From the IMG/VR virus record IMGVR_UViG_3300025889_000163, positions 1 through 53,175 of that record: a DNA stretch of 53,175 nucleotides; one strand, written 5' to 3'. The DNA comes from a virus. Lineage: Duplodnaviria > Caudoviricetes. The notes below the pieces were generated by a model, which did no database searches, was not told the DNA's origin, and saw nothing but the letters and a program-made list of their open reading frames with translations. The first letter of the stretch is position 1, and each line of letters begins with the position of its first letter. The translations under genes were made by a program, and so were the position numbers. This document shows, piece after piece, positions 1 through 19,416 of this stretch.

Positions 1-42
1 AAGTTCCAAAGAAATCAATCAACAAACTGAAAGGAACAGGAC

Positions 43-726
43 TTGTTTAAACATGATCCGATTGACCTTGGATATGATGATTTAGTATCAGAAACCAAGC
101 AAACAGGTAGAAAATACAACACGCCTGATGGCAATGCATATCCATCAATCACAACTGTTTTATCAATACTCAGCGAAGAAGGCATCGCTGAGTGGAGAGC
201 GAGAGTAGGAGATGAAGAAGCTAACAAAATATCTGTCCGTGCTAGTAGAAGAGGTACTGCGGTTCATAGTGTGGTCGAAAAGTATTTGGATAATGATCCC
301 AATTACATGGATGGTTATACACCTGATATCTTTGATTCTTTTCGGACGATTCGCGGAGTTTTAGATGAAAGCATTGGTACAATTTATGGGCAAGAACTTC
401 CGCTCTATTCTGACCATCTACGCGTTGCTGGGCGTGTCGATTGTGTTGCTGAATTTGACGGAAAGATATCAATCATTGACTTCAAAACCAGTCGAAAAGC
501 AAAACAGCCAAAGTACATCGAGTCCTACTACTGTCAAGAAGCAGCATATGCCATTATGTGGGAAGAGCGTACCGGAATGCCTATCACCCAACTGATAACG
601 ATTGTTGCTGTAGACGATATGCATTACTCAGGACCAGGATGTCAGGTATTTGTTGAAAAAAGAGACAAATGGGTACCAAAATTAAGAGACACCATCAATA
701 AATACTACACCAGATTGGAGGCATAA
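43..726 (+). CDS. PD-(D/E)xK exonuclease (Cas4/MGME1-like, conserved in marine T4-like phages)
   Basis: YPSITTVL, RGTAVH, AGRVDCVAEFDGKISIIDFKTS and QEAAYA motifs; TTG start. Confidence 0.85.
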   Translation: MFKHDPIDLGYDDLVSETKQTGRKYNTPDGNAYPSITTVLSILSEEGIAEWRARVGDEEANKISVRASRRGTAVHSVVEKYLDNDPNYMDGYTPDIFDSFRTIRGVLDESIGTIYGQELPLYSDHLRVAGRVDCVAEFDGKISIIDFKTSRKAKQPKYIESYYCQEAAYAIMWEERTGMPITQLITIVAVDDMHYSGPGCQVFVEKRDKWVPKLRDTINKYYTRLEA

Positions 727-1304
727 TGTCCGAGATTATTCGAGCAGCAACAAAGAAATTACACGAAGATCTTGAACTTCAATCATTCAATCAGAAGATG
801 TTTCGCAGCGAGCAAACACGAGATGAGCGACAGGCATATCTCTCGGTACAATATGAAATATTCTCATGTCTTGACATACATGTACCTGCTGAGTTGCGTC
901 GTCTTCCATACATCTGTTATGATCTAGATCGATTGGGCGGCAGAATGAATGTACCACCTGCTGCTCTGGGATATGCAACTCATTTAGAGACTATTTGCGA
1001 GGACAAGCGTCCACACATTTATCTCAACTACATGGGACTGATGTTTGGTGGACAGATTATGAAGCGCAGATATCCAAACTTTCCGATGCAGATTTATGAG
1101 TTTGAAGACCTGCAAGCGGGAAAGCGATATATACGAGAAGAAGTCTGCGAGGATACAGATAATTTCATATTAGAGGTCAAATATGGATTCCGTTGGCAGA
1201 TTGAAATAGCAAAAGAATTAGGAATGTATTTTGAAGTTAAAGACAGAATTGAAGCATATCTCGATGAGAATGCACGAAATGATAAGGAACTTTCCGGAGT
1301 CTGA
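726..1304 (+). CDS. hemO: Heme oxygenase (HemO/Ho1-like)
   Basis: N-terminal ATKKLHEDLE (proximal His) and distal helix HIYLNYMGLMFGGQI; directly upstream of a bilin reductase. Confidence 0.88.
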   Translation: MSEIIRAATKKLHEDLELQSFNQKMFRSEQTRDERQAYLSVQYEIFSCLDIHVPAELRRLPYICYDLDRLGGRMNVPPAALGYATHLETICEDKRPHIYLNYMGLMFGGQIMKRRYPNFPMQIYEFEDLQAGKRYIREEVCEDTDNFILEVKYGFRWQIEIAKELGMYFEVKDRIEAYLDENARNDKELSGV

Positions 1305-1866
1305 GTTTATTCCGACCAGTGGTTACAACTGGGAGAATTATCGTTACACCTCACCAAAATTTAGACAAGCACACGTTGAGGTGTTCAATCATGACGCACT
1401 CACTGTACTGCATGTTGTTGTACTTCCACACGTAGAATATCCCACACCCATATTTGGATTTGATGTTGTAGGATCAACGAAAACGAACACTGTTTCTGGT
1501 CTATTTCTTGATTGGTCACCCACTCTGATTGATAAATCCTGGCATGACACATCACATCACGAGCAGAATAGAATACTTCCACCCTGGGCATACATATTTT
1601 CCAACTCGTTTATTGCGCAAAGACCAACAGAATATACTAATCTGCTCACCTTTGCACTCCTATCATTTGATCGATATTTGCGTGAATTAAGATCTGCAGT
1701 GCCTGTTACAAGCAAATTTGACCGACAATACATTATTGACAAGCAGGATAATTACTGCATTGAACAAGCAGCAAACCCACGAACACACGCTGCATTGACT
1801 GCTCATCTATCTTCAGCAGAGCATGCAACGCATTTTATGTCAAATATACTATTTCCGAGACCATGA
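1231..1866 (+). CDS. Ferredoxin-dependent bilin reductase (PcyA/PcyX family)
   Basis: FRQAHVE...VLHVVVLP...PIFGFDVV...FLDWSP and QAANPRT match the FDBR core; His61-Asp78 spacing equals PcyA His88-Asp105; start uncertain (overlaps hemO). Confidence 0.87.
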   Translation: MKLKTELKHISMRMHEMIRNFPESEFIPTSGYNWENYRYTSPKFRQAHVEVFNHDALTVLHVVVLPHVEYPTPIFGFDVVGSTKTNTVSGLFLDWSPTLIDKSWHDTSHHEQNRILPPWAYIFSNSFIAQRPTEYTNLLTFALLSFDRYLRELRSAVPVTSKFDRQYIIDKQDNYCIEQAANPRTHAALTAHLSSAEHATHFMSNILFPRP

Positions 1867-2471
1867 TATCACTAAATTCACCGAGACCATACGATAATCT
1901 CTACTTCAAACGTCTGACTGTAGATCCCACAATCCTCTCTGACGCGCAATCTTACTGGGAACCGTACTTACCTCTCCCCACACCTGCACTTATTCGATCA
2001 ACACGCATTGCTCCTATTCCTATTCCTTCACTCGTAAACTACCTAGAAACTCATTGCATTGAAATATCACACTATGGTCTATTCTCATTTGGTAATAACT
2101 GGACTACACATTCAGTTCCTCTCGCACACATAGACCACAAACTTGCTAATCTATCTCTTGTACTGCCAATTTCTAATTGTAATTCCTCAACACCAACGAA
2201 TCTGTATTCCTTCACTACAGAACACCAAGTCTCTGCACCATTAAATGCATCACTAAACAAAATAGCAGACAATCCCATTCTATTTGATGCATCTAAACTA
2301 ACACTACATTCTTCCTATATTCTAGACACAATGTATCTGCTTAATATATCCCAAATACATAGAGTGGAGAACTATACGAATGAACCTACAGTGAGAATGG
2401 TACTAAGACTAGCAACTAAGAATAATATAGAATGGTCTGAAGACTGGAGTGTATGGGATCGATTATCGTAA
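1863..2471 (+). CDS. Putative 2OG-Fe(II)/cupin-fold oxygenase
   Basis: AHID ... LLNISQIHRVEN ... RMVLRL pattern (HxD...H...R); ATGA-coupled to the bilin reductase. Confidence 0.55.
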   Translation: MISLNSPRPYDNLYFKRLTVDPTILSDAQSYWEPYLPLPTPALIRSTRIAPIPIPSLVNYLETHCIEISHYGLFSFGNNWTTHSVPLAHIDHKLANLSLVLPISNCNSSTPTNLYSFTTEHQVSAPLNASLNKIADNPILFDASKLTLHSSYILDTMYLLNISQIHRVENYTNEPTVRMVLRLATKNNIEWSEDWSVWDRLS

Positions 2472-2527
2472 AGCGATATATCGTACAGTAATTTACAGTA
2501 AAATTTTAAATAGGAGCGAGAGAGAGA

Positions 2528-2935
2528 ATGAAAAGATATGCATGGATGGCAGGTGGTTGGATTTGTCTCGTATTTGCGTGGATTGGCGTGGTGACACCTG
2601 GCATTCCCTTTAGTCATTTCGTACTCGGAGCAGCATTTTGTTTCGCTAAATCTTCACCTCGTATGCACAATTATCTGATGAATCACCGTGTGTTTGGTCC
2701 GTTTATCACCAATTGGAATCAGAAGCGTGTCTTTCCTACTAGGGCAAAGTATCTAATGGCAATCATGATGTTATCATCACTGATTATAATGTACTTCACT
2801 GTGCCTATTAAGGGAGTAATCTATACTGGAATCACCATGGTGCTCGTATGTATTTGGGGATGGAGATATCCTGGATCACCTGAGGAATATGATCGAAGAG
2901 TGGCCAATGGAGAGCGTATCGCATGGATCAAGTAA
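2528..2935 (+). CDS. ybaN: YbaN/DUF454 family inner-membrane protein
   Basis: GVVTPGIPFSHFVLGAAFCFAKSSPRMHNYLMNHRVFGPFITNW...PTRAK family signature; AGGAG upstream. Confidence 0.88.
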   Translation: MKRYAWMAGGWICLVFAWIGVVTPGIPFSHFVLGAAFCFAKSSPRMHNYLMNHRVFGPFITNWNQKRVFPTRAKYLMAIMMLSSLIIMYFTVPIKGVIYTGITMVLVCIWGWRYPGSPEEYDRRVANGERIAWIK

Positions 2936-3246
2936 CTCGACCAATTGTATCATTCGTCATGTTATTCATATTTGGATTAGCATGGTTCCCCGCACGATTG
3001 GTATCTAATAAGAACAACTGTTGGTTTTGGTCATTTGAGCAGCGTATTCGTCATGGTGGGCATTTGAAATTTTATCCCAGTAAGACATGGCATGGGTATC
3101 ATATAACCTGGGTGGATGATCATGGCACTGAGTGGGAGTATCGTTTGACAGCATTAGATGATCCCTCATGGAGATCCCCTTGGTGGTACATCCCACTGTT
3201 CTTTGATGGGCGAGTACAGAAAAAGGTAAGCAAATCAAAGACTTAG
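2923..3246 (+). CDS. Hypothetical protein with N-terminal hydrophobic segment
   Basis: 107-aa ORF, GGAG RBS, overlaps the ybaN end; Trp-rich. Confidence 0.6.
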   Translation: MDQVTRPIVSFVMLFIFGLAWFPARLVSNKNNCWFWSFEQRIRHGGHLKFYPSKTWHGYHITWVDDHGTEWEYRLTALDDPSWRSPWWYIPLFFDGRVQKKVSKSKT

Positions 3247-3281
3247 CATAGATTTTCTTTTCCCTCACTGTATGGTATAAT
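3233..3281 (+). promoter_or_regulatory. Early promoter P1: IHF box plus extended -10
   Basis: AATCAAAGACTTA (WATCAANNNNTTR) at 3233-3245; TGGTATAAT with -10 at 3276-3281. Confidence 0.8.
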
Positions 3282-3308
3282 AGCATCATGATTAAGGAGA
3301 AAAGAGAT

Positions 3309-3587
3309 ATGTTAAGAAACGGTGATCTGATCAAAGCATATGAGTTCGAACCAATTCCTGGTCGTGACGATAAGTATGTCATAGGTGCCATTGATCGTAT
3401 CGAAGAATTTGCCTATGTCATCAAAGGCGAAACTATCATCAAGGATACGGCATTCGATACTGCTCGTATGAAAGAGGGTGTTGAGATTCGTGTTCCCTTC
3501 CGTACCATGTTTGATTACGAAGGTCGTGTGACTGCACTCAGTGAGGATCACGTGTTCACTGAAGCATATTATGAAGAGTTTGCATAA
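3309..3587 (+). CDS. Hypothetical early protein
   Basis: ATG at 3309 after TAAGGAGA RBS, downstream of P1; in frame with track ORF 3288..3587. Confidence 0.75.
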   Translation: MLRNGDLIKAYEFEPIPGRDDKYVIGAIDRIEEFAYVIKGETIIKDTAFDTARMKEGVEIRVPFRTMFDYEGRVTALSEDHVFTEAYYEEFA

Positions 3588-3606
3588 CATAACATAACTC
3601 CTGTTG

Positions 3607-3646
3607 CCCCCATGACGCTTCCGTATGCGTCCTCTGGGGGTTTTTT
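3607..3646 (+). terminator. Rho-independent terminator
   Basis: CCCCC..GACGC / GCGTC..GGGGG stem followed by T6. Confidence 0.75.
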
Positions 3647-3651
3647 AATGC

Positions 3652-3781
3652 TATGGTATGGTAATGGAGGGACCCGATTATAATTGAAGTAGGAGTCCCG
3701 TTTCCTCGAGCTTTACTTAGAGTCCCGTTCCCCCTTTTCTACAATCCCACACCATAATTCACTGGGGGGACCCGAATATAA
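3652..3781. repeat. Non-coding element with direct and inverted GGGACYC repeats
   Basis: GGGACCCGAWTATAA at 3669 and 3767; GAGTCCCGTT at 3693 and 3720; TATGGTATGG (3652) nearly complementary to CCACACCATA (3747). Confidence 0.7.
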
Positions 3782-3799
3782 AAATTTTTTTTCCTGCAA

Positions 3800-3848
3800 A
3801 AACAAGCACTTGTACGAGATTTTATTTGTCCCCACTGTATGGTATAAT
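3800..3848 (+). promoter_or_regulatory. Early promoter P2: IHF-like box plus extended -10
   Basis: AAACAAGCACTTG at 3800-3812 (1 mismatch); CACTGTATGGTATAAT identical to P1, -10 at 3843-3848. Confidence 0.8.
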
Positions 3849-3874
3849 ATCAGCACATGAATGGAGAGTATATA

Positions 3875-4033
3875 ATGGATTTCGAAAAAGGTTATAATGA
3901 TGCTAAGTTGGACCTATCTGAAGGTTGGGTTGAAACCACTGATCCTGTTAGGGTGCGTGCTATATTAATTGGAATGATGAACCCTTCTGAGTCCTATATT
4001 GAAGGTTATCTAAAAGGTCTGGAAAATCAATAA
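3875..4033 (+). CDS. Small hypothetical early protein (52 aa), not in the ORF track
   Basis: GGAGAG RBS; MDFEKGYNDAKLDLSEGW...SESYIEGYLKGLENQ; resembles 4286..4465. Confidence 0.75.
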   Translation: MDFEKGYNDAKLDLSEGWVETTDPVRVRAILIGMMNPSESYIEGYLKGLENQ

Positions 4034-4073
4034 GTTAGGGTAGGTTTCTTTTTCAGTGTGTGTATGGTATAAT
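4025..4073 (+). promoter_or_regulatory. Early promoter P3: IHF box plus extended -10
   Basis: AATCAATAAGTTA at 4025-4037; TGTATGGTATAAT with -10 at 4068-4073. Confidence 0.8.
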
Positions 4074-4101
4074 AACAGCATAAATCATAGAGAGTTAAAT
4101 A

Positions 4102-4284
4102 GTGAAAAAAGCAAGTACTGAGATTGAAAAGCAAGTGGCAGAATTCTTGGCAAAAGGTGGTAAGGTAACAGTGGTAGCACCCAAGAAGTTACGCAGAATT
4201 GGATTCACCGCACAGGGTGGTTCACCTAAGAGAAGAATCGAAGACCGCTGGAATCAGGGTTTTGATGGTAAAGCAATCAACTAA
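4102..4284 (+). CDS. Small basic hypothetical early protein
   Basis: GTG start after GAGAG; VAEFLAKGGKVT motif typical of small phage proteins. Confidence 0.7.
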   Translation: MKKASTEIEKQVAEFLAKGGKVTVVAPKKLRRIGFTAQGGSPKRRIEDRWNQGFDGKAIN

Positions 4285-4285
4285 T

Positions 4286-4465
4286 ATGGACGTTGGATAT
4301 TACCAAGCAAAGAAAGACTTTGATTCAGGCAAATGGGATCTATCCATGTCTAATGAAGAGATTCTGAGTTTGCTTGGTGGTAATGTCTCAGAAGAATTCT
4401 TGGAAGCATATCGTACTGGCATTGAGCGTGTGAGGAATTTGGATTATTATCTGGGAATTCAATAA
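4286..4465 (+). CDS. Small hypothetical early protein (59 aa)
   Basis: ATG 1 nt after the upstream stop, in frame with track ORF 4199..4465; resembles 3875..4033. Confidence 0.7.
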   Translation: MDVGYYQAKKDFDSGKWDLSMSNEEILSLLGGNVSEEFLEAYRTGIERVRNLDYYLGIQ

Positions 4466-4505
4466 CTTACGATAGATTGCTTTTTCGTTAGAATTCAGTT
4501 AGAAT
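4457..4505 (+). promoter_or_regulatory. Early promoter P4: IHF-like box, TTGCTT -35, TAGAAT -10
   Basis: ATTCAATAACTTA at 4457-4469; TAGAAT at 4500-4505; same spacing as P1-P3. Confidence 0.75.
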
Positions 4506-4534
4506 AAAGGCATAGAAGTTAAGGAGAGTGATAT

Positions 4535-4696
4535 ATGCAGTATTCAAGGAATCAAGTTGGTGGGGTTTATAAGCGTCCGGCGACGCTGCGCGGCGAAAGC
4601 GATGAACTCATGGCAATCATTGGTGGTGCAGTGGGTTTGCTAGGAATCTTCTTGTTCATGGCAGCGTTGGCAATCTTACCATGGTGGGTACTATGA
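4535..4696 (+). CDS. Small membrane protein (53 aa), not in the ORF track
   Basis: TAAGGAGAG RBS; C-terminal hydrophobic helix MAIIGGAVGLLGIFLFMAALAILPWWVL; ATGA overlap with the next gene. Confidence 0.75.
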   Translation: MQYSRNQVGGVYKRPATLRGESDELMAIIGGAVGLLGIFLFMAALAILPWWVL

Positions 4697-4932
4697 AGGA
4701 GAAAGAACTTAGGAGGTTGATGATTCGTTATCTCGATTTTCTCCTATTGGAAGAGCATACTTTGATGAAAAGCACGCTTGATAAGTACAAGTTCAGATTA
4801 GAACTTGGCGAAAAATTAACGTCCAAAGAGTTCACAGTACTCGTCAAGTTTTTGGATCGTGATAGTCAAATGACCAAGCGTGAACTTCGCAAGTATTTTG
4901 ATCTCATTATCGAGAAGAAAGAGGTAGCATAA
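4693..4932 (+). CDS. Hypothetical protein
   Basis: Translationally coupled on both sides (ATGA, TAATG). Confidence 0.7.
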   Translation: MKEKELRRLMIRYLDFLLLEEHTLMKSTLDKYKFRLELGEKLTSKEFTVLVKFLDRDSQMTKRELRKYFDLIIEKKEVA

Positions 4933-5369
4933 TGCAAATCACCAACGAAACTCACACGATGCACATCGTGAATCATCTTAAAGATACATGTGCGAATCAT
5001 GACTGGTACTTTCAGATGGCGAATGGCGATGCCTATTATGCAGGTCTTCGTGTTGCTAGCGAGATCAACTACCTCAAGAATGTATTAATTGCACGTGGGT
5101 ATAAGCAGCAAGTAGAGACTTTGATTGCTAACTATCGTCCTAAGATGCCTGTTCTTGAAGAGTTGTTGAAACCTGTTCCCAGAACGATGCCTAATCCTAA
5201 GTCTTATCCCCGAGCGGAACTGAACATTCTGTGTGATTGGAGACTGCATGATTATTCTGAGGATAGTTCTTTCGTGAATCGTTTAATGGAACTTGGATAT
5301 TCTGAAGAACGTGCTGTCGAATTGATGGCAGAGTATGAAGTTGATTACGAAGCATGGAGGAAAGGTTAA
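4932..5369 (+). CDS. Hypothetical protein
   Basis: GAGG RBS; NHDWYFQM..GDAY..G motif seen in small phage proteins. Confidence 0.7.
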   Translation: MQITNETHTMHIVNHLKDTCANHDWYFQMANGDAYYAGLRVASEINYLKNVLIARGYKQQVETLIANYRPKMPVLEELLKPVPRTMPNPKSYPRAELNILCDWRLHDYSEDSSFVNRLMELGYSEERAVELMAEYEVDYEAWRKG

Positions 5370-5533
5370 TGGAAGATATGTACTACGAAGAGATTCGTTT
5401 GTCTCGTTCGTTTGCTCGTGAGTTTGAGAAGTATCGATGGTCTTTTACCAGCGAAACTTATCGTGATCTCGTTGCTGCGTACAATGAATTGAAACGTCAT
5501 TACGAGATTGAAATCGAAGAAGGAGTTCAGTAA
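5369..5533 (+). CDS. Small hypothetical protein (54 aa), not in the ORF track
   Basis: TAATG overlap, GGAGG upstream; MEDMYYEEIRLSRSFAREFE...EIEEGVQ. Confidence 0.7.
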   Translation: MEDMYYEEIRLSRSFAREFEKYRWSFTSETYRDLVAAYNELKRHYEIEIEEGVQ

Positions 5534-5546
5534 TTCAGTTTGGTAA

Positions 5547-5629
5547 GACGATCTATATACTCTCTCCTTAACAAATTAGGATCGTCAGATACAGCGCGGG
5601 GAGTTTCTAGTAGGTGGGGCGACTGTATC
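5547..5629 (+). ncRNA. Putative two-hairpin small RNA with an anti-Shine-Dalgarno loop
   Basis: GACGATCT/GGATCGTC stem enclosing TATACTCTCTCCTTAAC; second stem GATACAG-CGC/GCG-A-CTGTATC; directly upstream of the tRNAs. Confidence 0.55.
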
Positions 5630-5634
5630 AACTT

Positions 5635-5720
5635 GGAGGTGTAGGAAAATTGGTAACCCCATCGGACTGTAAATCCGACGCCGAATGGCATTGTTAGTTC
5701 AAGTCTAACCGCCTCCACCA
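5635..5720 (+). tRNA. tRNA-Tyr(GTA)
   Basis: Acceptor GGAGGTG/CGCCTCC, anticodon arm TCGGA-CTGTAAA-TCCGA, long variable arm, TTCAAGT T-loop, encoded CCA. Confidence 0.95.
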
Positions 5721-5724
5721 ATTT

Positions 5725-5801
5725 CGGGGCATAGCGCAGTCTGGTAGCGCATCTGCTTTGGGAGCAGAGGGTCGGGAGTTCGAATCTCTCTGCCCCGACC
5801 A
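5725..5801 (+). tRNA. tRNA-Pro(TGG)
   Basis: CGGGGCA/TGCCCCG acceptor, TCTGC-TTTGGGA-GCAGA anticodon arm, GTTCGAATC, encoded CCA. Confidence 0.97.
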
Positions 5802-5815
5802 ACTTCGGAGATTGT

Positions 5816-6481
5816 ATGAAAGTAGCAGTTTTATTAGCAGGACATCATTATCAAATTACCAAAGTCATTGGTAAGGGTCTGCGAGAAAAAAACATTCGAA
5901 TATCGTCTCGTAATGGAACGCATTTTGATACTGGAAATTTACACGATAAAATTCCTCACGACGCTGATATTTACCTTTCAACTCACCCTTCTCCCGTATT
6001 GCCTGAGTACATAAATCGATTTCATTCTGTTGTTGGAACAGTTGTGGTTCCTGATGACGTTAGTCAAAGAGGTACAATTGCTGCAGGATTGCGGCAAATA
6101 GACCCAGAAAAATATGATGTAATTGTTGTCACTCGTCCTGATCTATGGGTAGAGTGTGATTGGCCAGAAATAAACGAAACGGATGTCACATTCTTACATT
6201 GGGAACTTGCAGACGGCGTAAGAGAAATGTGGTTTAAGAAGAAAACTATACGTGGGGTTGCTGATATTTTTTGGTCTTTCCCAACTAAATATCATTCGAA
6301 GATCATGAAACATCTTGAGAAAACCTCTCCGGAAGAAATGCAACCACAATATTTGCATCATCTCCCTGTACAGTTACCAGATCTTCCATACAATGCTTAT
6401 TATGATGAGTTTGCTCCTTCGGGTACAAAATATATGATCATAATAAGACTCAAGGCAGTCAGCATATTACAGTGGTCATAA
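5816..6481 (+). CDS. Hypothetical protein, possible nucleotide-sugar transferase-like fold
   Basis: MKVAVLLAGH start and YDVIVVTRPDL motif seen in viral glycan-related proteins; GGAG RBS. Confidence 0.45.
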   Translation: MKVAVLLAGHHYQITKVIGKGLREKNIRISSRNGTHFDTGNLHDKIPHDADIYLSTHPSPVLPEYINRFHSVVGTVVVPDDVSQRGTIAAGLRQIDPEKYDVIVVTRPDLWVECDWPEINETDVTFLHWELADGVREMWFKKKTIRGVADIFWSFPTKYHSKIMKHLEKTSPEEMQPQYLHHLPVQLPDLPYNAYYDEFAPSGTKYMIIIRLKAVSILQWS

Positions 6482-7221
6482 CTATGTCATTAGAAAAAAT
6501 CTATTTAAACGATGTTGTACTTGGTAAATCCAACAAATGGTCTCCCTATTTTTCGGCATACCAGAAACATCTGGAGAAATATCTTAATCGCGACTGGGTG
6601 ACTGTTTTAGAAATTGGAGTCCAAGGAGGTGGGAGTCTAGAACTTTGGAAAAAATATTTTGGTAAAAACAGTACAATAATTGGATTAGACATTTTTAAGC
6701 ATGAACTTGTAGATAAAGTAGAGCAGTTAGGTGGAATTGATTTTTTTATTGGTCGTCAACAAAATACAGAAGACCTGGACAAAATCCTTGACAAATATCC
6801 TGAAATTGATATTGTTATTGATGATGGATCCCATATATCATACCAACAAAAAATAACATTTGATTATTTGTTCCCAAAAATAAAAGATACCGCAACATAT
6901 ATTGTTGAAGATCTTCATACTTCTTTTTGGCCAGATCATAATGGACATACTGAGAAAGGAAACGAAGAACACAGTTTCTTTAATTATGCTTTAAGTTTAA
7001 CTAAAGAAATGCAAAGATTGAAAAACAAAAAATTGTGGAATTTTCACATGACTCGTCTTTCAGACAAACAATTGGAACAAGATTTCTACAATGATGCAAT
7101 AGAGAGACCAAATTATTGGCAAAGTAATCTTGACAGCATTTCTTTTTATGAAAGTATGATCGCCTTTGAAAAGAAACCAAGGTCTATGATTTTAAATATG
7201 ATGATAGGACACATGAGATGA
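6472..7221 (+). CDS. Class I SAM-dependent (sugar O-)methyltransferase
   Basis: VLEIGVQGGGSLELWKKYF, IDIVIDDGSH, YIVEDLHTS; start may be ATG 6484. Confidence 0.85.
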   Translation: MVITMSLEKIYLNDVVLGKSNKWSPYFSAYQKHLEKYLNRDWVTVLEIGVQGGGSLELWKKYFGKNSTIIGLDIFKHELVDKVEQLGGIDFFIGRQQNTEDLDKILDKYPEIDIVIDDGSHISYQQKITFDYLFPKIKDTATYIVEDLHTSFWPDHNGHTEKGNEEHSFFNYALSLTKEMQRLKNKKLWNFHMTRLSDKQLEQDFYNDAIERPNYWQSNLDSISFYESMIAFEKKPRSMILNMMIGHMR

Positions 7222-7343
7222 TAGAAATTCTAGGGGTTTCTTTCTTTCTACTTGTAGGCATCTGTGGTTGCATATATGGTCTAAATCCATCGGATAAATA
7301 TACGCTGTACAAACAGTCCGATGGAGAAAATGACGATGTATGA
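7218..7343 (+). CDS. Small membrane peptide (41 aa), not in the ORF track
   Basis: ATGA overlap with the methyltransferase; MIEILGVSFFLLVGICGCIYGLNP... Confidence 0.4.
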   Translation: MIEILGVSFFLLVGICGCIYGLNPSDKYTLYKQSDGENDDV

Positions 7344-7773
7344 ATATAGGTGCAAAATTAAAAAAGTTGTCGACGGAGATACTGTCGACGTTGACATTGA
7401 TCTTGGTTTTGATGTTGTTCTTACCGATCAGCGTATTCGCCTTTACGGTATTGATACTCCTGAGTCACGTACTAGAGATGAAGTGGAAAAGAAGTACGGA
7501 CTCATTGCAAAAGAATATCTCAAGTCCAAACTTGGAAAAGAAGGAACCCTAAAAACTCATAAAGATGCAACTGGTAAGTTTGGTCGCATCCTTGGTGAGT
7601 TTATCGTATATGACGAAGATAAAGATGCATGGCGTTCTGTGAACACTATGATGATTGAGAAACATATGGCAGTAGAATATTATGGGCAAAGCAAAGAAGA
7701 CATCCAAGAGCAGCACCTCAAAAACAGGGAACTCATCGACGAAAGATACCTCTCTGACATTGAAGTGCACTAA
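7321..7773 (+). CDS. Thermonuclease (SNase-like)
   Basis: VVDGDTVD, RIRLYGIDTPES, GKFGRILG; true start may be slightly downstream (MTMYEY). Confidence 0.9.
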   Translation: MEKMTMYEYRCKIKKVVDGDTVDVDIDLGFDVVLTDQRIRLYGIDTPESRTRDEVEKKYGLIAKEYLKSKLGKEGTLKTHKDATGKFGRILGEFIVYDEDKDAWRSVNTMMIEKHMAVEYYGQSKEDIQEQHLKNRELIDERYLSDIEVH

Positions 7774-7894
7774 AAAAGGAAACTTTGTTCTCGAGCATAA
7801 TGGGAATAAATGGCGATATCCTCGTGACAAATACCCAGAAGCATATAAACATATGATGTCTTTGTTTCGTCCAGCGTCAGGTGACCCTAAATGA
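7682..7894 (+). CDS. Hypothetical basic protein
   Basis: Fills the gap to the next gene with an ATGA junction, but overlaps the nuclease by 92 nt. Confidence 0.4.
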   Translation: MGKAKKTSKSSTSKTGNSSTKDTSLTLKCTKKGNFVLEHNGNKWRYPRDKYPEAYKHMMSLFRPASGDPK

Positions 7895-8733
7895 ACCTGG
7901 TATTTCAATATCAAATGAGCGATCCGTCAGTTGACGATCGTAGCAATCTTGATGGATTGCCTCGTCACGAATTTTATAATAAAGTAAAAGACATAAGTTC
8001 AAGATCATTCCAGCAATATGCTAAAGATATTGGAGCAGAGTATTATTTTACTGATCAAGATTATTTTCCAGAATCTTCTGTTAAACACTACTTGAAATTC
8101 TTTTACAATATTGCTGGTCTTTGGATGGATCCCTTCTTTGATTCTTATGAAAATGTTTTGTATGTCGACACTGATATTGTTTGCAATACAAAAGAAAATA
8201 TATTTGATCAACATACTGGAGAAATAAGTGGTGTGTTGGAAAGCGATATTAAAGATGACAGGGGAAAATATCCATATGCTGCATGGGATATTAAACAAAG
8301 TTCTTTTCAGACTTTAGTTTCTGCCTATGAAGCAAACGAAGTATCCATTGAGGATGCAATGGTTTTGCCGCCAAATAATCCATCTCGAGTTCTTTGTTAT
8401 AATACTGGTGTTCTCGTTTGGTCGAAAGATGCCAGAGTAAAAGCTAGAGAAAAATGGGATCACTGGGAACGATGGTTTAATAATGGGATTGAATTAAAGT
8501 TACCAGCCTGGGCAAACAATGATCAATTTTATATAAGCGCACAGTGCGTTAAACATGATATGGATATGAACTTCCTTGATCAAACATGGAATGACAGTCC
8601 ACATTATGCTAATCCAGAACAATTGCTAGAAAGTAATTTCTTACATTATTCTGGCGGAGAACTCAAAAAACAAATGTTAAGAAGGTATGAACAAGGATGG
8701 TTCCCAACAATTAAACCTGAGGATAAAACATGA
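7891..8733 (+). CDS. GT-A fold glycosyltransferase (GT8-like)
   Basis: VLYVDTD (DxD), YNTGVLV, NNDQ, TWN, FLHYSG. Confidence 0.8.
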   Translation: MNLVFQYQMSDPSVDDRSNLDGLPRHEFYNKVKDISSRSFQQYAKDIGAEYYFTDQDYFPESSVKHYLKFFYNIAGLWMDPFFDSYENVLYVDTDIVCNTKENIFDQHTGEISGVLESDIKDDRGKYPYAAWDIKQSSFQTLVSAYEANEVSIEDAMVLPPNNPSRVLCYNTGVLVWSKDARVKAREKWDHWERWFNNGIELKLPAWANNDQFYISAQCVKHDMDMNFLDQTWNDSPHYANPEQLLESNFLHYSGGELKKQMLRRYEQGWFPTIKPEDKT

Positions 8734-8921
8734 GCAATGTAGTTAGTTTTTGTGACTATCGTCAACGCAGATTAGAACAGATTCAAGAAAATGAGTGGGA
8801 TTTATTGGATGAAGTTTTGATGAACTTAGGCGACACTGCCACTGTAACCTTGACATTGTCCGACGAAAACGGTAACATAATCTGGTCTAGTAATGGAGAA
8901 TTTGATGATAACCCGAAGTGA
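8730..8921 (+). CDS. Hypothetical protein
   Basis: GAGGA RBS, ATGA overlap; MSNVVSF.DYR start. Confidence 0.65.
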   Translation: MSNVVSFCDYRQRRLEQIQENEWDLLDEVLMNLGDTATVTLTLSDENGNIIWSSNGEFDDNPK

Positions 8922-9102
8922 TTTTAATGAAAATGCGTTCGATCTATTGATTCGCAACGCATTGATTGAACAACTGGAAGATTTCGTAGATACTATGAAC
9001 GTTGATAGTATTCGTGATACTACCTTGGTTGAAGCATTTAAACGTGTAATTGCATACAACAGTGTGCCCGGAACTTATGAGGATGGACAATATGACATGT
9101 GA
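8893..9102 (+). CDS. Hypothetical protein
   Basis: Acidic 69-aa ORF in the operon; AFKRVIAYNSVP motif. Confidence 0.6.
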   Translation: MENLMITRSDFNENAFDLLIRNALIEQLEDFVDTMNVDSIRDTTLVEAFKRVIAYNSVPGTYEDGQYDM

Positions 9103-9775
9103 AGTGAGTCTTGTAGGCATGACAATGCCCAGCGCAACCACTGGTTGTCATTCTGCTAACGAATTGATTGCCTATGCTGCTCGGGTGAGCAACCCCAGTA
9201 ACCAGAACAATGAGAAGACTGCACCAAAGTTGTTACGTTATCTTATTAAAGAAGGTCACTGGTCTCCATTCGAGATGGTTTCAGTCACAATGGAAATTAA
9301 AACAACCCGAGATATCTCTAGGCAAATCCTAAGGCATCGGTCGTTCTCATTCCAAGAGTTTTCTCAGCGTTATGCGGTAAGCGAAGGGTTTGTAACTACG
9401 CGAGAAGCACGTAAACAGCATCCTACGAATCGACAGTTGTCAATGGTAGATGAAGACCCAAGCAAGCAAAAGAAAGCACAAGAAGTCTTTAACGAAATGC
9501 AAGCAGAGGTTGCCAAGGTTGCTAAAGACTACTATGAGATGGCGCTGAATAATGGCATTGCTAAAGAACAAGCACGTGCACTGCTTCCTGAGGGTCTCAC
9601 TGAGACTACTTTGTATATGGCAGGGACGTTACGCTCCTGGGTGCATTATTGCGAACTGAGGCGAGCACACGGAACTCAGGCAGAGCATATTGAGGTTGCC
9701 GACAAGTGTTGGGAAATCCTTGGGGTTCATTTCCCTGATGTAGTTAAAGCAGTGGAGATGCTAAATGAACATTGA
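9092..9775 (+). CDS. thyX: Flavin-dependent thymidylate synthase ThyX
   Basis: GHWSPFE, RQILRHRSFSFQEFSQRY, AKEQARALLP, GTLRSWVHY, TQAEH; ATG 9092 in frame with track ORF 9050..9775. Confidence 0.96.
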   Translation: MTCEVSLVGMTMPSATTGCHSANELIAYAARVSNPSNQNNEKTAPKLLRYLIKEGHWSPFEMVSVTMEIKTTRDISRQILRHRSFSFQEFSQRYAVSEGFVTTREARKQHPTNRQLSMVDEDPSKQKKAQEVFNEMQAEVAKVAKDYYEMALNNGIAKEQARALLPEGLTETTLYMAGTLRSWVHYCELRRAHGTQAEHIEVADKCWEILGVHFPDVVKAVEMLNEH

Positions 9776-10172
9776 GATTGGTAAGACCTATCGCATGATG
9801 AACGCTTATAAGAAAAGCGTCATTGAGATCGAGTACAAGAAAAAGGGAAAGAAGCAAGCAGTAATCGAAACCTGCTGGCGCAGTGGTTCCTGGAATGTAA
9901 CGCCGATGAATGAAGACGAAATTAAATATCTTCAGGATGGATTGAACGGCGAGTCGATCGAGATCTATGAATTCCAAGAACTAGAGTTCCTGGAGACTTG
10001 GGACGGTTGTTCTGAAGACTGGGAATTCTACAACATTGACGATGAATCAGAGCAGGAGGAAATTCAAGAAGGTTGGTGGGAAGATGGACACATGTGGTTT
10101 GACGATAACGGTTGGGAAGAATTAGATCCCGAAGTAATCATTCATAATGGTATTCTCTTAGAGGAAGTATAA
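9765..10172 (+). CDS. Acidic hypothetical protein
   Basis: GGAG RBS; Trp/Asp/Glu-rich (ETWDGCSEDW). Confidence 0.7.
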   Translation: MNIEIGKTYRMMNAYKKSVIEIEYKKKGKKQAVIETCWRSGSWNVTPMNEDEIKYLQDGLNGESIEIYEFQELEFLETWDGCSEDWEFYNIDDESEQEEIQEGWWEDGHMWFDDNGWEELDPEVIIHNGILLEEV

Positions 10173-10327
10173 TGAAAGTTGGTGATAAACTTAATGGTGG
10201 TACAATCGTAGAGGTTTTTGAAGACGAAAGCGGATATGCTGTTTCTCGTAAAAACAAAAAAGAGGAAAATTATCCTCACCACAAAACTGAATATGTAACT
10301 TTTGTAAGGAAAACTAATGAACGGTAA
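10172..10327 (+). CDS. Small hypothetical protein (51 aa), not in the ORF track
   Basis: TAATG overlap, GAGGA RBS; MKVGDKLNGGTIVEVFEDES... Confidence 0.6.
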   Translation: MKVGDKLNGGTIVEVFEDESGYAVSRKNKKEENYPHHKTEYVTFVRKTNER

Positions 10328-10577
10328 GAAAGCAAAACTTCTTCGGAAAGTAGGTAAGTTTGATAATATCTCTAAGAAATTGTATAATAGTCTTTCTTGG
10401 CACAATAAAACAATTCTTGGTATGCTGTACAATCATCTTATTGAGAAACACAAAGATTCGCCGGAAAATCTTCCAAAAAAACCTGATCCTCGTTATCGTG
10501 TGCAAAATGAAGATGGTTCTAATAGAAAGTACCGTAGAACTCAAATGTCTCTATTAAGAAGATCTAAGATCTCGTAA
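10317..10577 (+). CDS. Basic hypothetical protein
   Basis: AAGGA RBS; MNGKKAKLLRK start. Confidence 0.65.
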   Translation: MNGKKAKLLRKVGKFDNISKKLYNSLSWHNKTILGMLYNHLIEKHKDSPENLPKKPDPRYRVQNEDGSNRKYRRTQMSLLRRSKIS

Positions 10578-10583
10578 GAAAAA

Positions 10584-11318
10584 ATGAAATTTAAAAACGG
10601 TTGGTATCTAATAGAAGAAGAAACCGATATGGGGTATGATCTTTGGAACACCACCCAACCCTGGCAAGATGGACTAATGTTTAAAACCATGTCATATTGC
10701 AATCATATGAGAACTGCAATAGACATTGGGTGCGCTTATGGTGCAACAACATTACCTCTTGCCAAAAATTTCAATCATGTTCATAGTTTTGATATGAACA
10801 AAACTCTCTCTGAATGTTTTGTAAAAAACACTTCTGGTTTTAATAACATAACGCATTATGTAACTGGTCTTACGGATAAAGATGAAAAACGAACAGCGTT
10901 TTTTGCTAAGTGGAGTGGATATTCCACCTTACGAGAAAACCAATTTGAAACATTAAAGACTAATCTAGGAGGATATAAAGAAGAAGTTTCATGTACTTTT
11001 CTAGATAAATTTCAAATTGAAGATGTAGATCTTTTAAAAATTGATGCTGAAGGCGAAGAACTCTCTATTCTGCGAGGGGCAAGATATACTATAGGCAAAT
11101 ACAAACCAGTTGTCGTCCTAGAAAATGGTAAAAACAAGAGAGAACAAGAGTTTATATCTGCATTACATGATATAATTGGATATATTCCTGTTGAGAATTG
11201 GAGATACGATACCATTTTTATTCATCCAAATCTTCTAAAAAAGAAACGAAAAAATAATTTGACATCCTTTTTATTAAACCGTAAACTATATACAGAAAAT
11301 TTGATGGAAATAAAATGA
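10584..11318 (+). CDS. FkbM family methyltransferase
   Basis: AIDIGCAYG, VDLLKIDAEGEELSILRGARYTIGKYKPVVVLE. Confidence 0.9.
   Translation: MKFKNGWYLIEEETDMGYDLWNTTQPWQDGLMFKTMSYCNHMRTAIDIGCAYGATTLPLAKNFNHVHSFDMNKTLSECFVKNTSGFNNITHYVTGLTDKDEKRTAFFAKWSGYSTLRENQFETLKTNLGGYKEEVSCTFLDKFQIEDVDLLKIDAEGEELSILRGARYTIGKYKPVVVLENGKNKREQEFISALHDIIGYIPVENWRYDTIFIHPNLLKKKRKNNLTSFLLNRKLYTENLMEIK
11259..11287 (+). promoter_or_regulatory. sigma70-type promoter
   Basis: TTGACA-17 nt-TAAACT upstream of 11315. Confidence 0.7.
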
Positions 11319-11911
11319 ACGTATTTTTCTTATCAGAAGAACCAGAAAAATGTGCAATAGAACATGTTGACAAACATGTTGTTAAAATGAATGTCGAATA
11401 TGCTCAACTACTTTCTACCGCACATCGCGTTTTAGATGGAACCTATTGGGAAGGCAGATCTACTACAGGTAGAAAAGTCTCAAGATTCTTCCTTGAAGAA
11501 GGTGAACTAAATCAAAAGCTTTACTTAGCAGCTCATATAAACCATCCTTCTGCTAAATGGGTTAGAAAATCTAAAGCAAACTATGATTGGTTATACAAAC
11601 TTTGGATGTCGCTCGGTAGAGAATTCACATATAGATATGGGAAGATGCATAAATCAATACAAGATTTGCAAATATATCTAATTGATGCACCAGCGAATAT
11701 TTCTGATGGACCTTTTACAGAACCACCTCCAGCAATGACTCAATTCCCCGAATGCATTGTTCCAGGCGATTCTATCAAATCATACAGAAATTATTATTGG
11801 ACAGCAAAAAAAGATTTTGCTGTTTGGACAAAACGAGATAAACCTACATGGTGGCAAGATTATGAACGGAAAGGGCAGCAAGAGGCGTCCAATGGAAATA
11901 TCCCAGTCTGA
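11315..11911 (+). CDS. Pyrimidine-dimer DNA glycosylase/DenV-related protein
   Basis: MNVFFL...HVDKHVVKM..EYAQLLSTAH, HINHPSAKWVR, EFTYRYGKMH, SYRNYY. Confidence 0.75.
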   Translation: MNVFFLSEEPEKCAIEHVDKHVVKMNVEYAQLLSTAHRVLDGTYWEGRSTTGRKVSRFFLEEGELNQKLYLAAHINHPSAKWVRKSKANYDWLYKLWMSLGREFTYRYGKMHKSIQDLQIYLIDAPANISDGPFTEPPPAMTQFPECIVPGDSIKSYRNYYWTAKKDFAVWTKRDKPTWWQDYERKGQQEASNGNIPV

Positions 11912-12170
11912 ATTCGATATTCAATGGGATCTTATATTCGGAGGTAAAAATATGAAACACGAACATCAACGAGGAATTATCACAGAAGAACTTTCTCGAT
12001 ATTTTTCTGCTGACGGTAGACGTGAAGGCGTTGTAGTGAAAAGCGAAAAGGGGTTTATGGTAGAACTGTACGAAAATAAAAAATATATCAAAACAGTAGA
12101 TGTTACTAATCATAGTGAACAGTATGCAGAAGACACTGCAGAAAATTGGACGCTTGGAGTATTGAATTGA
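11862..12170 (+). CDS. Hypothetical protein (possible internal start at 11952)
   Basis: MNGKGSKRRP...WDLIFGGK peptide in frame with a second ATG that has its own GGAGGT RBS; ends YAEDTAENWTLG. Confidence 0.6.
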   Translation: MNGKGSKRRPMEISQSEFDIQWDLIFGGKNMKHEHQRGIITEELSRYFSADGRREGVVVKSEKGFMVELYENKKYIKTVDVTNHSEQYAEDTAENWTLGVLN

Positions 12171-17385: not shown

Positions 17386-18210
17386 TTAAATTTTGTCTAA
17401 AAGTTTTCTCGCTTTTGATTTAATTGTATCTTCTACTTTATCTCTAAGTTGTCCGATGCCTCTTTCAATTTCGTTTCGTATTCTAGAAATAGGGTTATTG
17501 TCATCTAATGCTGCGCCTGACCAGTTTCTAAACGTGAATTGTACACTGTACATTTCTAATGTGTTGCCTTGATCGTCGCTTAATTGCTCTGCGTTTATCA
17601 TCGAAGGATATGCTTCATATAAAGTACACACATAAGAAGCATTGCCGTCTATACTAAATCCGGCATTAATCCCATCAACTCCAATATTTAAAGCAAACAA
17701 ATTATTACTGAAATTTAATCCACCAATATTTCGTAAAGAGTTCTTAACAAAATTTGGAAGAGGTAAGTCAAACTTTTTAGAATATAAAGATAATTCAAAA
17801 TTTTTCTTTAGCTGATGAATCTTTATAGTTTTTGCATAGTCATTGTAAAATCCAACAACTTGTTGTTCGTCGTAATTCCTACTACCGTCAGCACCAGGCA
17901 CAATTAAATTTTGCCATGTTTCAAAGTAACGTCTTACTGAAGCATTGTTTAAAACCAAGAATCGCATGCTTATCGAGTCGGTCAAATGACCATATGCAAC
18001 CTTTCTTTGTGCGCCCCAATGCAATCTATCTACTGTGGTAATTTGTCTTGAAGGTAATTCAACTTCTTTGCAAAGCAAACCCATTTCTTTAGTAGAAACG
18101 TCAGAGATTCCTCCTGGTAATTCTACATAGAATAAATTTGGTTGAGCGATACCACCGCCAGCGGAAATCTGTCCACTTAATTCTGTGATTGAGGCAGGTT
18201 TAAACGCCAT
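17386..18210 (-). CDS. gp54: Tail-tube initiator/tube-like protein (gp54/gp19 fold)
   Basis: GGIAQPNLFYVEL, LCKEVELPSRQI, FETWQNLI, FYNDYA, LYEAYP, VQFTFRNW; start at 18210 preferred to 18330. Confidence 0.75.
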   Translation of the reverse strand: MAFKPASITELSGQISAGGGIAQPNLFYVELPGGISDVSTKEMGLLCKEVELPSRQITTVDRLHWGAQRKVAYGHLTDSISMRFLVLNNASVRRYFETWQNLIVPGADGSRNYDEQQVVGFYNDYAKTIKIHQLKKNFELSLYSKKFDLPLPNFVKNSLRNIGGLNFSNNLFALNIGVDGINAGFSIDGNASYVCTLYEAYPSMINAEQLSDDQGNTLEMYSVQFTFRNWSGAALDDNNPISRIRNEIERGIGQLRDKVEDTIKSKARKLLDKI

Positions 18211-18793
18211 TGATTGTTCTCCTAGAGTCTGCCCAGACTTCAGATTGATCAGCTTTTGACCATTGTGCCGTTGGAAGAAACGCAGCGATTTCCCATTCTG
18301 GTGCGGGGACTCTTGCCATATCTCCTTCAATATGTGCTGTAAGATAATGCTTAAAACAAGGTTTAAAGTATTTCATTTTAGCTGCTTTTTTCATATATTG
18401 ATATGAAACACCAAATTTGGTAGATTCGTCCCAACGGTTGTTGTTGGTTATGTCCATTAATCCGTCTAAAAATTTTGCTCTTAATGTCAAAGGGAGATAG
18501 TGTAGATTTAATCCATGAAAACCGCCAGGAGCAGGTTGTACTGCAATCACTAAAGGGAAATTATCCCAATATGGCAATTTGGATTTCAGTTTCGGGTCGT
18601 AGAAAAACATATACATTCCGCCGACAGCAGATTTGTTAGTTCTAGACAGTTCGCCTTCTCTCATTAATGCTCTTCTGTTTACAGATTGCATAGACTGCAA
18701 TTTTCTACGAAACCATTCGCGTGATTGTCTCGTACGCGGAGTTATCCCCGCGCGAAATGCTTCTTGCTCTATAGTTTGAAAAAGGTTGCTCAT
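18200..18793 (-). CDS. gp2: DNA end protector protein gp2
   Basis: MFFYDPKLKSKLPYWDNFPL, GLNLHYLP, KPCFKHYL, WEIAAFLPT. Confidence 0.93.
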   Translation of the reverse strand: MSNLFQTIEQEAFRAGITPRTRQSREWFRRKLQSMQSVNRRALMREGELSRTNKSAVGGMYMFFYDPKLKSKLPYWDNFPLVIAVQPAPGGFHGLNLHYLPLTLRAKFLDGLMDITNNNRWDESTKFGVSYQYMKKAAKMKYFKPCFKHYLTAHIEGDMARVPAPEWEIAAFLPTAQWSKADQSEVWADSRRTINGV

Positions 18794-18798
18794 GAATG

Positions 18799-18806
18799 TA
18801 TTTATA
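18799..18806 (-). promoter_or_regulatory. T4-type late promoter
   Basis: TATAAATA on the minus strand just upstream of gp2. Confidence 0.8.
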
Positions 18807-19416
18807 TTGTATGGGAAGAATCGACGAGATTTATTATTAAAGTGCTTCTTGCAGAGTTTCCGTCTGCTTTAAAGTCGTGCCAGGTGTTTTCGTTCCTAGA
18901 AAATATTAGACACCTGTTATGTTTCCAAACAACAGACTCGTCTGGGTTTTCGTTAGATCTATCGTTGTATAGATTAGTCCCGTTGTTTTTTTCTCCAAGA
19001 TAAGTTACTGTGCTCAATATTTTCCAAGGAATATCATTATGTTTTTCGTAATGAAATGTTTTTCCTATCTTAGACAATTGCAAAGAAATGCCGTCTACTG
19101 TTTTTATTTTTCCTGGATTTAAAATATGCAATAAATTTTTTAGTATCTCTGTTTTATCGTTCATAATCTCCGTAAACACGTGTGTTAAACCTAAAAAATC
19201 TTCTTTAGGTTCAAATTTTTTAATATCTGGTGTTTTTTTATTTTTATCAAACGAGAGTAATGTAAACCCCTTTGTTTCTTTTGTTTTTCTGTCGAAAACC
19301 ATCTTTTTGGTGTACATTTGTTGATCTGTAAGTTCAATTTGATCTAAAAATTGCAAACAATAATCTGCGTGTTCTTTTTTTAAAAAATCATCTAATACAG
19401 CGTAATTCCAACTCAT
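18802..19416 (-). CDS. 2OG-Fe(II) oxygenase
   Basis: KHNDIPWKILSTVTYL (HxD), GTNLY, WKHNRCLIF...TWHDF...RSTL. Confidence 0.8.
   Translation of the reverse strand: MSWNYAVLDDFLKKEHADYCLQFLDQIELTDQQMYTKKMVFDRKTKETKGFTLLSFDKNKKTPDIKKFEPKEDFLGLTHVFTEIMNDKTEILKNLLHILNPGKIKTVDGISLQLSKIGKTFHYEKHNDIPWKILSTVTYLGEKNNGTNLYNDRSNENPDESVVWKHNRCLIFSRNENTWHDFKADGNSARSTLIINLVDSSHTI

Follow-up and report, generated by a model that had tools for sequence, protein, structure and literature searches.

The stretch of DNA that was analysed, referred to here as the window, is a virus record of 53,175 bases with a completeness of 31% (CheckV) and a G+C content of 36%. The T4-type proteins encoded in it are a single-strand DNA-binding protein, baseplate wedge and hub proteins and a tail tube cap. 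The baseplate wedge protein shares at most 37% identity with that of any cultured phage, and its nearest counterparts are those of Phage C48C1, Pelagibacter phage HTVC008M and Methylophilales phage Melnitz. Sequence nearly identical to window positions 4400-6500 occurs in freshwater, estuary and oyster metagenomes, and 22 of the 22 runs listed for it are DNA. The first 15 kb of the window carry small plus-strand genes that follow repeated promoter cassettes with an extended -10 box, a layout which resembles the hyperplastic early regions of T4-type phages as these are described in the accessible parts of two reports (PMC2839356, PMC4122927). The features of this region that are considered below are the following.

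3232-3288, 3799-3855 and 4024-4080, plus strand: early promoter cassette of family D1 with the extended -10 box TGTATGGTATAAT, three copies (repeat analysis)
3292-3300, plus strand: leader TTAAGGAGA, 8 nt before ATG 3309
3864-3874, plus strand: leader GAGAGTATATA, directly before ATG 3875
4518-4528, plus strand: leader motif GTTAAGGAGAG of the gene for a 53-aa protein, the best predicted partner of the H1 loop
4535-4696, plus strand: gene for the 53-aa protein (translation, tblastn)
5539-5631, plus strand: the whole element, about 95 bases with two hairpins (sequence, folding, covariance model)
5539-5546, plus strand: single-stranded 5' tail TTTGGTAA, in which TTGGTAA is invariant in all four distinct copies (alignments)
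5547-5586, plus strand: hairpin H1, with an 8-bp stem and a 24-nt loop at 5555-5578 (RNA folding)
5588-5629, plus strand: hairpin H2, with a stem of 7 + 3 bp formed by 5588-5597 and 5619-5629, A5622 being bulged (folding, RNAalifold)
5635-5720, plus strand: tRNA-Tyr (GTA), 5 nt past H2 (ARAGORN; Rfam tRNA, 52.5 bits)
5725-5801, plus strand: tRNA-Pro (TGG) (ARAGORN; Rfam tRNA)

Some further features of the window were recorded alongside these. The 60-aa early protein encoded at 4102-4284 matches the RNA-polymerase-binding domain of SutA (PF20661, E 3.4e-08, 33.1 bits with a cut-off of 29.3); it may dock on the host RNA polymerase, and its orthologue in L023, one of the relatives described below, is 54% identical. 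Within the stretch 3596-3860, a GC-rich hairpin at about 3606-3646 is followed by a T run, and GGGGGACCCGAWTATAA-like repeats of family D20 (3665-3683 and 3763-3781) lie between this hairpin and the promoter cassette at 3799. This order of terminator and promoter is like that of PeSL cassettes, which are considered in the closing comparison. The leader of the gene at 18200-18793 (window 18794-18823, minus strand) contains TATAAATA, which we take to be the T4 late-promoter motif. The protein encoded downstream of the tRNAs (5816-6481) has no relative in viral contigs.

The two hairpins of the element lie one base apart (5586 and 5588). The arms of H1, GACGATCT (5547-5554) and GGATCGTC (5579-5586), form seven Watson-Crick pairs and one U-G pair, with a folding energy of -8.1 kcal/mol. 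The 19-mer TATATACTCTCTCCTTAAC, which is unique within the window, occupies 5554-5572, and its pyrimidine core CTCTCTCCTTAAC (5560-5572) falls within the H1 loop. The interior of H2 (5598-5618) is G-rich and differs in length among copies, and AACTTGG follows H2 directly in the window. The stem with a pyrimidine loop and the second stem with a G-rich interior, to which an earlier note on this DNA had drawn attention, are all present in the sequence. Its claim that the H1 loop is presented unpaired agrees with the modelling, as the loop is predicted to be single-stranded in all folds, and its remark that the loop is not itself a ribosome-binding site also stands, because the minus strand has no ATG, GTG or TTG within the spacing window after the Shine-Dalgarno (SD)-like motif. 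The proposed off-state, in which the H1 loop would pair with the G-rich part of H2, was not borne out, as 233, 412 and 386 of 500 shuffled loops pair equally well.

Folding energy by itself is unremarkable for the element: over its full length z is -0.67 and -1.07, and the separate hairpins reach -2.55 (H1) and -1.73 (H2). The argument for structure is based on covariation among relatives. Of the 39 promoter-like sites predicted in window 1-12000, not one falls within 5534-5634 on the plus strand, and the element contains none of the five terminator-like sites. ARAGORN and the Rfam tRNA model did not call the element as a tRNA and reported only 5635-5720 and 5725-5801. Two other readings of the sequence were rejected. 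A coding reading is excluded, since indels of 4 nt and 15 nt shift the conserved blocks into different frames; no SD or ATG precedes the element, through which the window and the relative L015 each have one open frame. A promoter reading was set aside as the other alleles lack the TATACT of the window loop and initiation at that point would destroy H1.

Relatives were recovered by means of the gene at 4932-5369, which yielded 5 loci from viral contigs and 12 from metagenome contigs. Downstream of its homologues the gene order varies in nearly all of the 17 loci, and L015 is the only one with a homologue of the element (87% identity over 63 nt). L016 belongs to the same sequence type as L015, and its contig stops just short of the expected site of the element. 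The copy in L023 was found by pattern scans. The covariance model R1, built from the three copies in the window, L015 and L023, then led to a fourth, diverged copy in the 146-kb relative G003 (36672-36775, 69.9 bits, E ~1e-13), and this copy is identical in two further contigs, which makes three G003-type contigs in total. Altogether, the element was found in six records, representing three alleles and four genome types of one uncultured aquatic T4-like clade. Between the window and L015 or L023, the conserved blocks contain no substitutions, while the linkers are rewritten and the neighbouring genes are 60-77% identical. The element of the window or L023 is 68-71% identical to that of G003, where the neighbouring 3309 gene shows 55% identity, and the tRNA-Tyr of the window is 70-72% identical to the tRNA-Tyr of L023 and G003. 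Contigs of the runs X2 (5110-5731) and X4 (5133-5657) show no differences to the window and hold no informative variation of the element. One contig of the run X3 joins 5260 to 5629; it represents a relative without 5261-5628, i.e., without a 59-aa gene and the element, in which the junction with tRNA-Tyr is kept.

Searches at greater distance gave the following results. The exact 19-mer had no match in viral contigs. Among cultured phages, the window element had no match and the L023 element had only three short matches at E = 4, and none of 10 pattern hits in bacterial and archaeal genomes passed R1 at E up to 1. L024, found with a stem-anchored pattern, and L040, found with a wider one, turned out to be chance matches in unrelated coding DNA. 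The Rfam search suggested earlier as a check returned no family for any copy examined: with cmscan and Rfam 15 (E up to 10 or 5) on window 3000-8000, L015, L010, L017 and L023, only tRNAs reached thresholds, and nothing overlapped window 5539-5631, L015 1861-1964, L010 900-1003 or L023 8801-8904. No descriptions of such an element were found in the open-access literature. Judging from these sequence comparisons, the element is a new structured phage RNA motif of an uncultured T4-like clade.

The four copies agree closely in their pairing. All 72 of 72 stem cells are paired, in 18 pairs that make up two helices. Compensatory double changes occur in 4 of the 18 pairs, three in H1 and one in H2 (C-G to U-A), a count drawn from three alleles only and in which the three H1 changes lie side by side and may have been produced by a single hairpin-templated event. 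In the H1 of G003, GACGATCT/GGATCGTC is replaced by GATAGTCT/GGACTATC, with three pairs altered on both sides. Shuffled partners equalled four double changes in 2 of 500 trials when the model-fitted alignment was used and in none of 500 when the alignment was made by MAFFT, blind to structure. Slid registers gave only 14-38% pairing, and RNAalifold returned the identical 18 pairs. The H1 loop measures 20, 22 or 24 nt and the H2 interior 21, 34 or 36 nt, with the arms fixed. Because the lengths of loop and interior vary while the stems stay the same, a hairpin fits better than a DNA/protein operator of fixed spacing. The covariance analysis called for by the earlier note has yielded two conserved helices with compensatory changes, and on this comparative evidence the two hairpins are real and conserved.

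The position of the element is also largely conserved. The first tRNA begins 5 nt after H2 in the window (Tyr), 8 nt after it in L023 (Tyr) and about 42 nt after it in the three G003-type contigs (Thr). The earlier description of the element as lying just 5' of a tRNA thus holds for five of the six element-bearing records and fails for L015, where a protein gene and no tRNA is found downstream. In L017-L019, tRNA-Tyr occurs without the element. The element directly follows a stop codon in the window, L015 and L023, and all the genes neighbouring it lie on one strand with it. As it lies 5' of a tRNA in five of six records, an RNase P cut at the 5' end of the tRNA is likely and would define its 3' end, as expected from the known action of RNase P. 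Such a release would not be essential, since the L015 copy has no downstream tRNA. The element is best described as a module which heads the tRNA island and is able to survive without a tRNA.

Other non-coding features were noticed around the tRNAs of the relatives. A second conserved non-coding stretch of about 110 nt, with the core CTCTGATAGYGGGTGAGG, is found just after tRNA-Tyr or tRNA-Asn (L017 1443-1565, L010 1200-1320, and also L018, L019, L027, L029 and L037-L039). Two of its alleles share 77% identity. Rfam gave no match for this stretch, the window does not contain it, and it may represent a further RNA gene of the tRNA island. Directly 5' of tRNA-Pro, L003 (2176-2216) and likewise L004 and L005, which belong to the relatives G002/G003/G004, carry a 7-bp hairpin with a 24-nt AT-rich loop, the sequence of which is unrelated to the element. 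In G003, the stretch before the element (36611-36671; L027 1440-1500) holds two GGGG...CCCC hairpins and a TATAAT box. This box is situated about 7 nt before the TTGGTAA tail, with no good -35 seen, and the sequence suggests that the G003-type allele may have its own promoter.

The pyrimidine tract of the H1 loop contains UCUCC in all alleles, and CTCTCTCCTTAAC is common to the window, L015 and L023. The earlier note had described this loop as antisense to the leaders of three early genes, named P4, P2 and P1, and all of the exact complements were found: 11/11 for P4 (GTTAAGGAGAG, 7 nt before ATG 4535), 11/11 for P2 and 9/9 for P1. In the window, the duplex with the 4535 leader reaches -20.6 kcal/mol, compared with -14.2 for the next best of 67 leaders. 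Shuffled loops did as well as this 11-nt complement in 2 of 300 cases, and in 22 of 400 when the 9-nt anti-SD core was kept fixed. The L015 loop has a 13-nt complement (-18.6 and -18.9 kcal/mol, next best -8.7), which was matched by 2 of 400 shuffled loops and by 12 of 400 with the core fixed. For the L023 loop, with a 15-nt complement (-26.0 kcal/mol, next best -15.7), the corresponding counts were 0 of 400 and 12 of 400. In each of these three genomes, the best partner among their own leaders is the leader of the orthologue of the 4535 gene. In L015, the cassette of the target leader also heads the orthologue of the 3309 gene; two identical promoter-leader cassettes, GAGAATATACTCATAGTTAAGGAGAACG, are found there at 210-225 and 571-586, heading two successive early genes. 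A second-best exact leader complement of at least 11 nt was seen for 3 of 15,186 25-mers sampled from both strands, with trivial antisense-of-leader cases counted.

The other two proposed targets fared differently. The match to P2 (GAGAGTATATA) is exact, but it depends on the TATATA of the loop, which is absent in all other copies, and its duplex energy (-14.2) is not unusual, being equalled by 55 of 300 shuffles with CTCC fixed. The 3875 gene has no orthologue in any locus examined or in G003, and this gene and the TATATA segment that complements its leader occur together in the window only. The match to P1 (TTAAGGAGA) is likewise exact, but it is a generic strong SD/anti-SD pairing: its 9-mer is a clade-wide early leader motif, present also in leaders of L019 and L020, both of which are without the element.

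That the complementarity is kept in relatives is true of three of the four genome types, in which it exceeds that of shuffled loops, but the G003 type has no target that is better than chance. The G003 loop TTCTTGTTCTCCTCTCAACTTA keeps UCUCC, and in two comparisons with 300 shuffled loops, 188 and 231 of these equalled its best leader duplex (-17.2, at 139458). The duplex with the leader of the operon containing the 33-aa orthologue reaches -8.7, which is weaker than what the loops of the other genomes give at that site. Co-evolution of loop and leader was looked for and found no support. The window loop pairs with the L023 leader over 13 nt and the L023 loop with the window leader over 12 nt, so that own and cross pairings are equally long, and complementarity is conserved without covariation. 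In L011, the 4535 orthologue stands behind a different leader, and no element was found in the 6.4 kb examined.

The 53-aa protein has an uncharged, hydrophobic C-terminal segment of 29 residues, and its gene is putatively a small membrane-protein early gene. It has no Pfam or PHROG match and belongs to a small unnamed family of 7 clusters. In each of the four genome types, an orthologue of this gene precedes the element by 0.9-1.2 kb. In G003 the orthologue is near the element although the orthologues of 4932 and 5369 are about 100 kb away. In the window and L023, the stretch from the leader of this gene to the element holds no terminator-like site, and the only one in L015 lies inside the target gene itself.

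The structure, conservation and position of the element, and its complementarity in three of the four genome types, are directly supported by these results. Its transcription, its processing, pairing in vivo and an effect on translation are what we infer. The best single mechanism, which the sequence leads us to favour only tentatively, is that the anti-SD loop of H1 may pair with early leaders and lower their translation. According to this proposal, 5539-5631 would be a conserved two-hairpin non-coding RNA module which would be transcribed from the plus strand with the early genes and form the 5' boundary of the phage tRNA cluster. An unpaired, anti-SD-like tract with a UCUCC core would be exposed in the large H1 loop, and this tract would base-pair with the purine-rich ribosome-binding leaders of early mRNAs. 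The strongest predicted partner is the very short leader of the gene for the 53-aa, hydrophobic-tailed protein, about 1 kb upstream on the same strand, and pairing would reduce the translation of this gene. Such pairing could take place in cis, within a single polycistronic RNA as soon as RNA polymerase has passed the element, or in trans, after the module has been excised. In the latter case, RNase P would generate the 3' end by cutting at the 5' end of the tRNA, and the 5' end would arise from a cut or a start near the conserved UUGGUAA tail. The anti-SD reading is weakened by the possibility that loop and leader are related by descent, via a leader cassette copied in inverted orientation.

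A more specific version, which we consider unlikely, is that of a translation timer, in which the loop, transcribed about 1 kb later than the promoter-proximal leader of the small membrane-protein gene, would fold back on this leader in the same early transcript. The gene would be shut off when the polymerase reaches the tRNA cluster and, after release by RNase P, the RNA would act in trans at tRNA-like abundance. If this were true, it would provide a self-limiting pulse of a possibly toxic early protein that is wired into tRNA processing. In a bolder form of the timer, the loop would mimic the anti-SD tail of 16S rRNA and titrate strong SD sequences generally.

Pairing with leaders is not the only function that such a structure could have. 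It is possible, though we think it less probable than the anti-SD role, that the element is a module for RNA processing or stability. The hairpins would then be the structured end of the upstream early mRNA after the RNase P cut, where they would stop 3' exonucleases or direct the cleavages by which mRNA and tRNAs are separated, and the loop would be read by a protein or be incidental, with no pairing to leaders. The location of the element right after a stop codon in the window, L015 and L023 and 5, 8 or about 42 nt upstream of the first tRNA in five of six records fits this explanation, as do the compensatory changes in the stems and the G003 allele with its lack of a specific target. However, the explanation leaves the invariant UCUCC tract, the invariant 5' tail and the conserved flanks of the G-rich H2 interior without a reason, and it does not account for the fact that the loop matches one orthologous leader better than chance in three genome types. 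Moreover, L015 retains the element without any tRNA, and H1, with its -8.1 kcal/mol, would be a poor barrier to exonucleases.

The generic, anti-SD-like UCUCC is the sole feature common to the loops of all alleles, which would also suit a stand-alone phage non-coding RNA with another partner, either a mimic of the 16S anti-SD that soaks up host SDs or a decoy for an RNA-binding protein. This RNA would be housed in the tRNA island, a kind of RNA gene island, merely to share expression and processing. Expression at the tRNA level would supply the abundance that titration demands, and the T4 tRNA cluster, according to its annotation, also keeps the small stable RNAs rnaC and rnaD. Nevertheless, we regard this as another unlikely reading, because the complementarity that extends beyond the SD core in three genome types would be left unexplained and R1 finds nothing in the tRNA region of T4 (best E 1.2).

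Less likely again is a co-transcriptional antitermination signal, either boxA/nut-like (NusB/NusE) or put-like (acting directly on RNA polymerase), by which the polymerase would be kept elongating from the translated early genes into the untranslated tRNA cluster. The element does precede untranslated RNA genes in five of six records, and two hairpins one base apart presumably recall the put RNAs of HK022. Against this, tRNA genes are short and structured and hence poor targets for Rho, and it is a protein gene that lies downstream in L015. The window loop TCTCCTTAACA agrees with the boxA consensus GYTCTTTAANA at 9 of 11 positions (mismatches at consensus positions 1 and 5), but only 8 of 11 agree in L015 and L023 and the G003 loop has no ungapped alignment, and all of these comparisons refer to a consensus that is gamma-proteobacterial in the accessible part of its source (PMC5725501) and may not be that of the host.

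It is very unlikely that the element has no RNA function and is a fossil inverted leader cassette, a PeSL-like scar left by recombination or a site acting at the level of DNA, for instance a protein operator: its minus strand reads as a leader (SD and spacer) minus the start codon, it sits in a gene-shuffling zone with repeated promoter cassettes, and hairpin-templated repair can preserve the complementarity of inverted repeats without selection on RNA, but the conserved blocks remain free of substitutions in the window, L015 and L023 despite rewritten linkers and neighbouring genes at 60-77% identity, compensatory changes occur in two separate helices, the distance between the arms differs by 4 and 15 nt among copies, contrary to what a site for a DNA-binding dimer would require, and 5534-5634 is without a promoter-like or terminator-like site.

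To our knowledge, very few regulatory RNAs of lytic phages have been characterised, and we know of none tied to the 5' edge of a tRNA cluster. The element offers covariation support together with a clear candidate pairing site and a clear candidate target. If its anti-SD role is true, T4-like phages would make a translational regulator of their own early genes via tRNA processing; if it is false, the element would still represent a new family of structured RNAs at phage tRNA islands, from which a family search could start. A functional by-product of tRNA precursor processing is reportedly provided by the external transcribed spacer of an E. coli tRNA operon, which is said to act by base pairing as a sponge for sRNAs. 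That example is a 3' spacer of a bacterial operon aimed at sRNAs, whereas the element is a phage 5' leader with two hairpins and a loop predicted to be aimed at SD sequences. A putative likeness to type I toxin-antitoxin systems with a trans-encoded antisense RNA lies in the gene for a small protein with a hydrophobic tail, the ribosome-binding site of which is complementary to a nearby candidate small RNA. However, the element is co-oriented with this gene and about 0.9-1.2 kb downstream of it, neither overlapping nor divergent, and the pairing is absent in the G003 allele.

Among phage elements, rnaC and rnaD of T4 (species 1 and 2) are comparable as stable non-coding RNAs that a T4-type phage encodes within its tRNA cluster, annotated without a function (NC_000866). 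They follow the last tRNA (tRNA-Arg) and measure 139 and 119 nt, whereas the element precedes the first tRNA. A search of T4 68500-74500 with R1 and the filters off gave 14 matches, all with E of at least 1.2. PeSL cassettes, in the accessible parts of their descriptions, are short conserved intergenic motifs of hyperplastic early regions, located beside shuffled ORFans and composed of a strong sigma-70-like promoter and a GGGG...CCCC terminator stem-loop (PMC2839356, PMC4122927). Cassettes of the PeSL type are present in the window at 3232-4080. The element itself is not a PeSL, since it has neither a promoter-like nor a terminator-like site.

A further point of comparison is the C4 antisense RNA of the P1/P7 immI region. 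In the accessible part of its description, C4 shares orientation and transcription unit with its targets and is excised from a longer transcript with the aid of RNase P, after which the loops of its hairpins base-pair to the target mRNA and thereby occlude a ribosome-binding site (PMC5320573). The element resembles C4 in setting an RNA loop against the ribosome-binding site of a gene in the same orientation, which in the present case is a pairing predicted from sequence. The C4 of that account has three stem-loops (P1-P3) with the loops a' and b', whereas folding with RNAfold, RNAalifold and covariation give two helices for the element. C4 is also placed there upstream of its targets, with RNase P making its 5' end, whereas the element is found about 1 kb downstream of its best target and would owe its 3' end to RNase P. 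The complementarity of C4 to ribosome-binding sites has a counterpart in the window, L015 and L023 (11, 13 and 15 nt) and is absent in the G003 type, and the Rfam C4 model matches no copy of the element examined. By analogy, our best guess is that the element, if it has an anti-SD role, works like C4 and is not a member of the C4 family.
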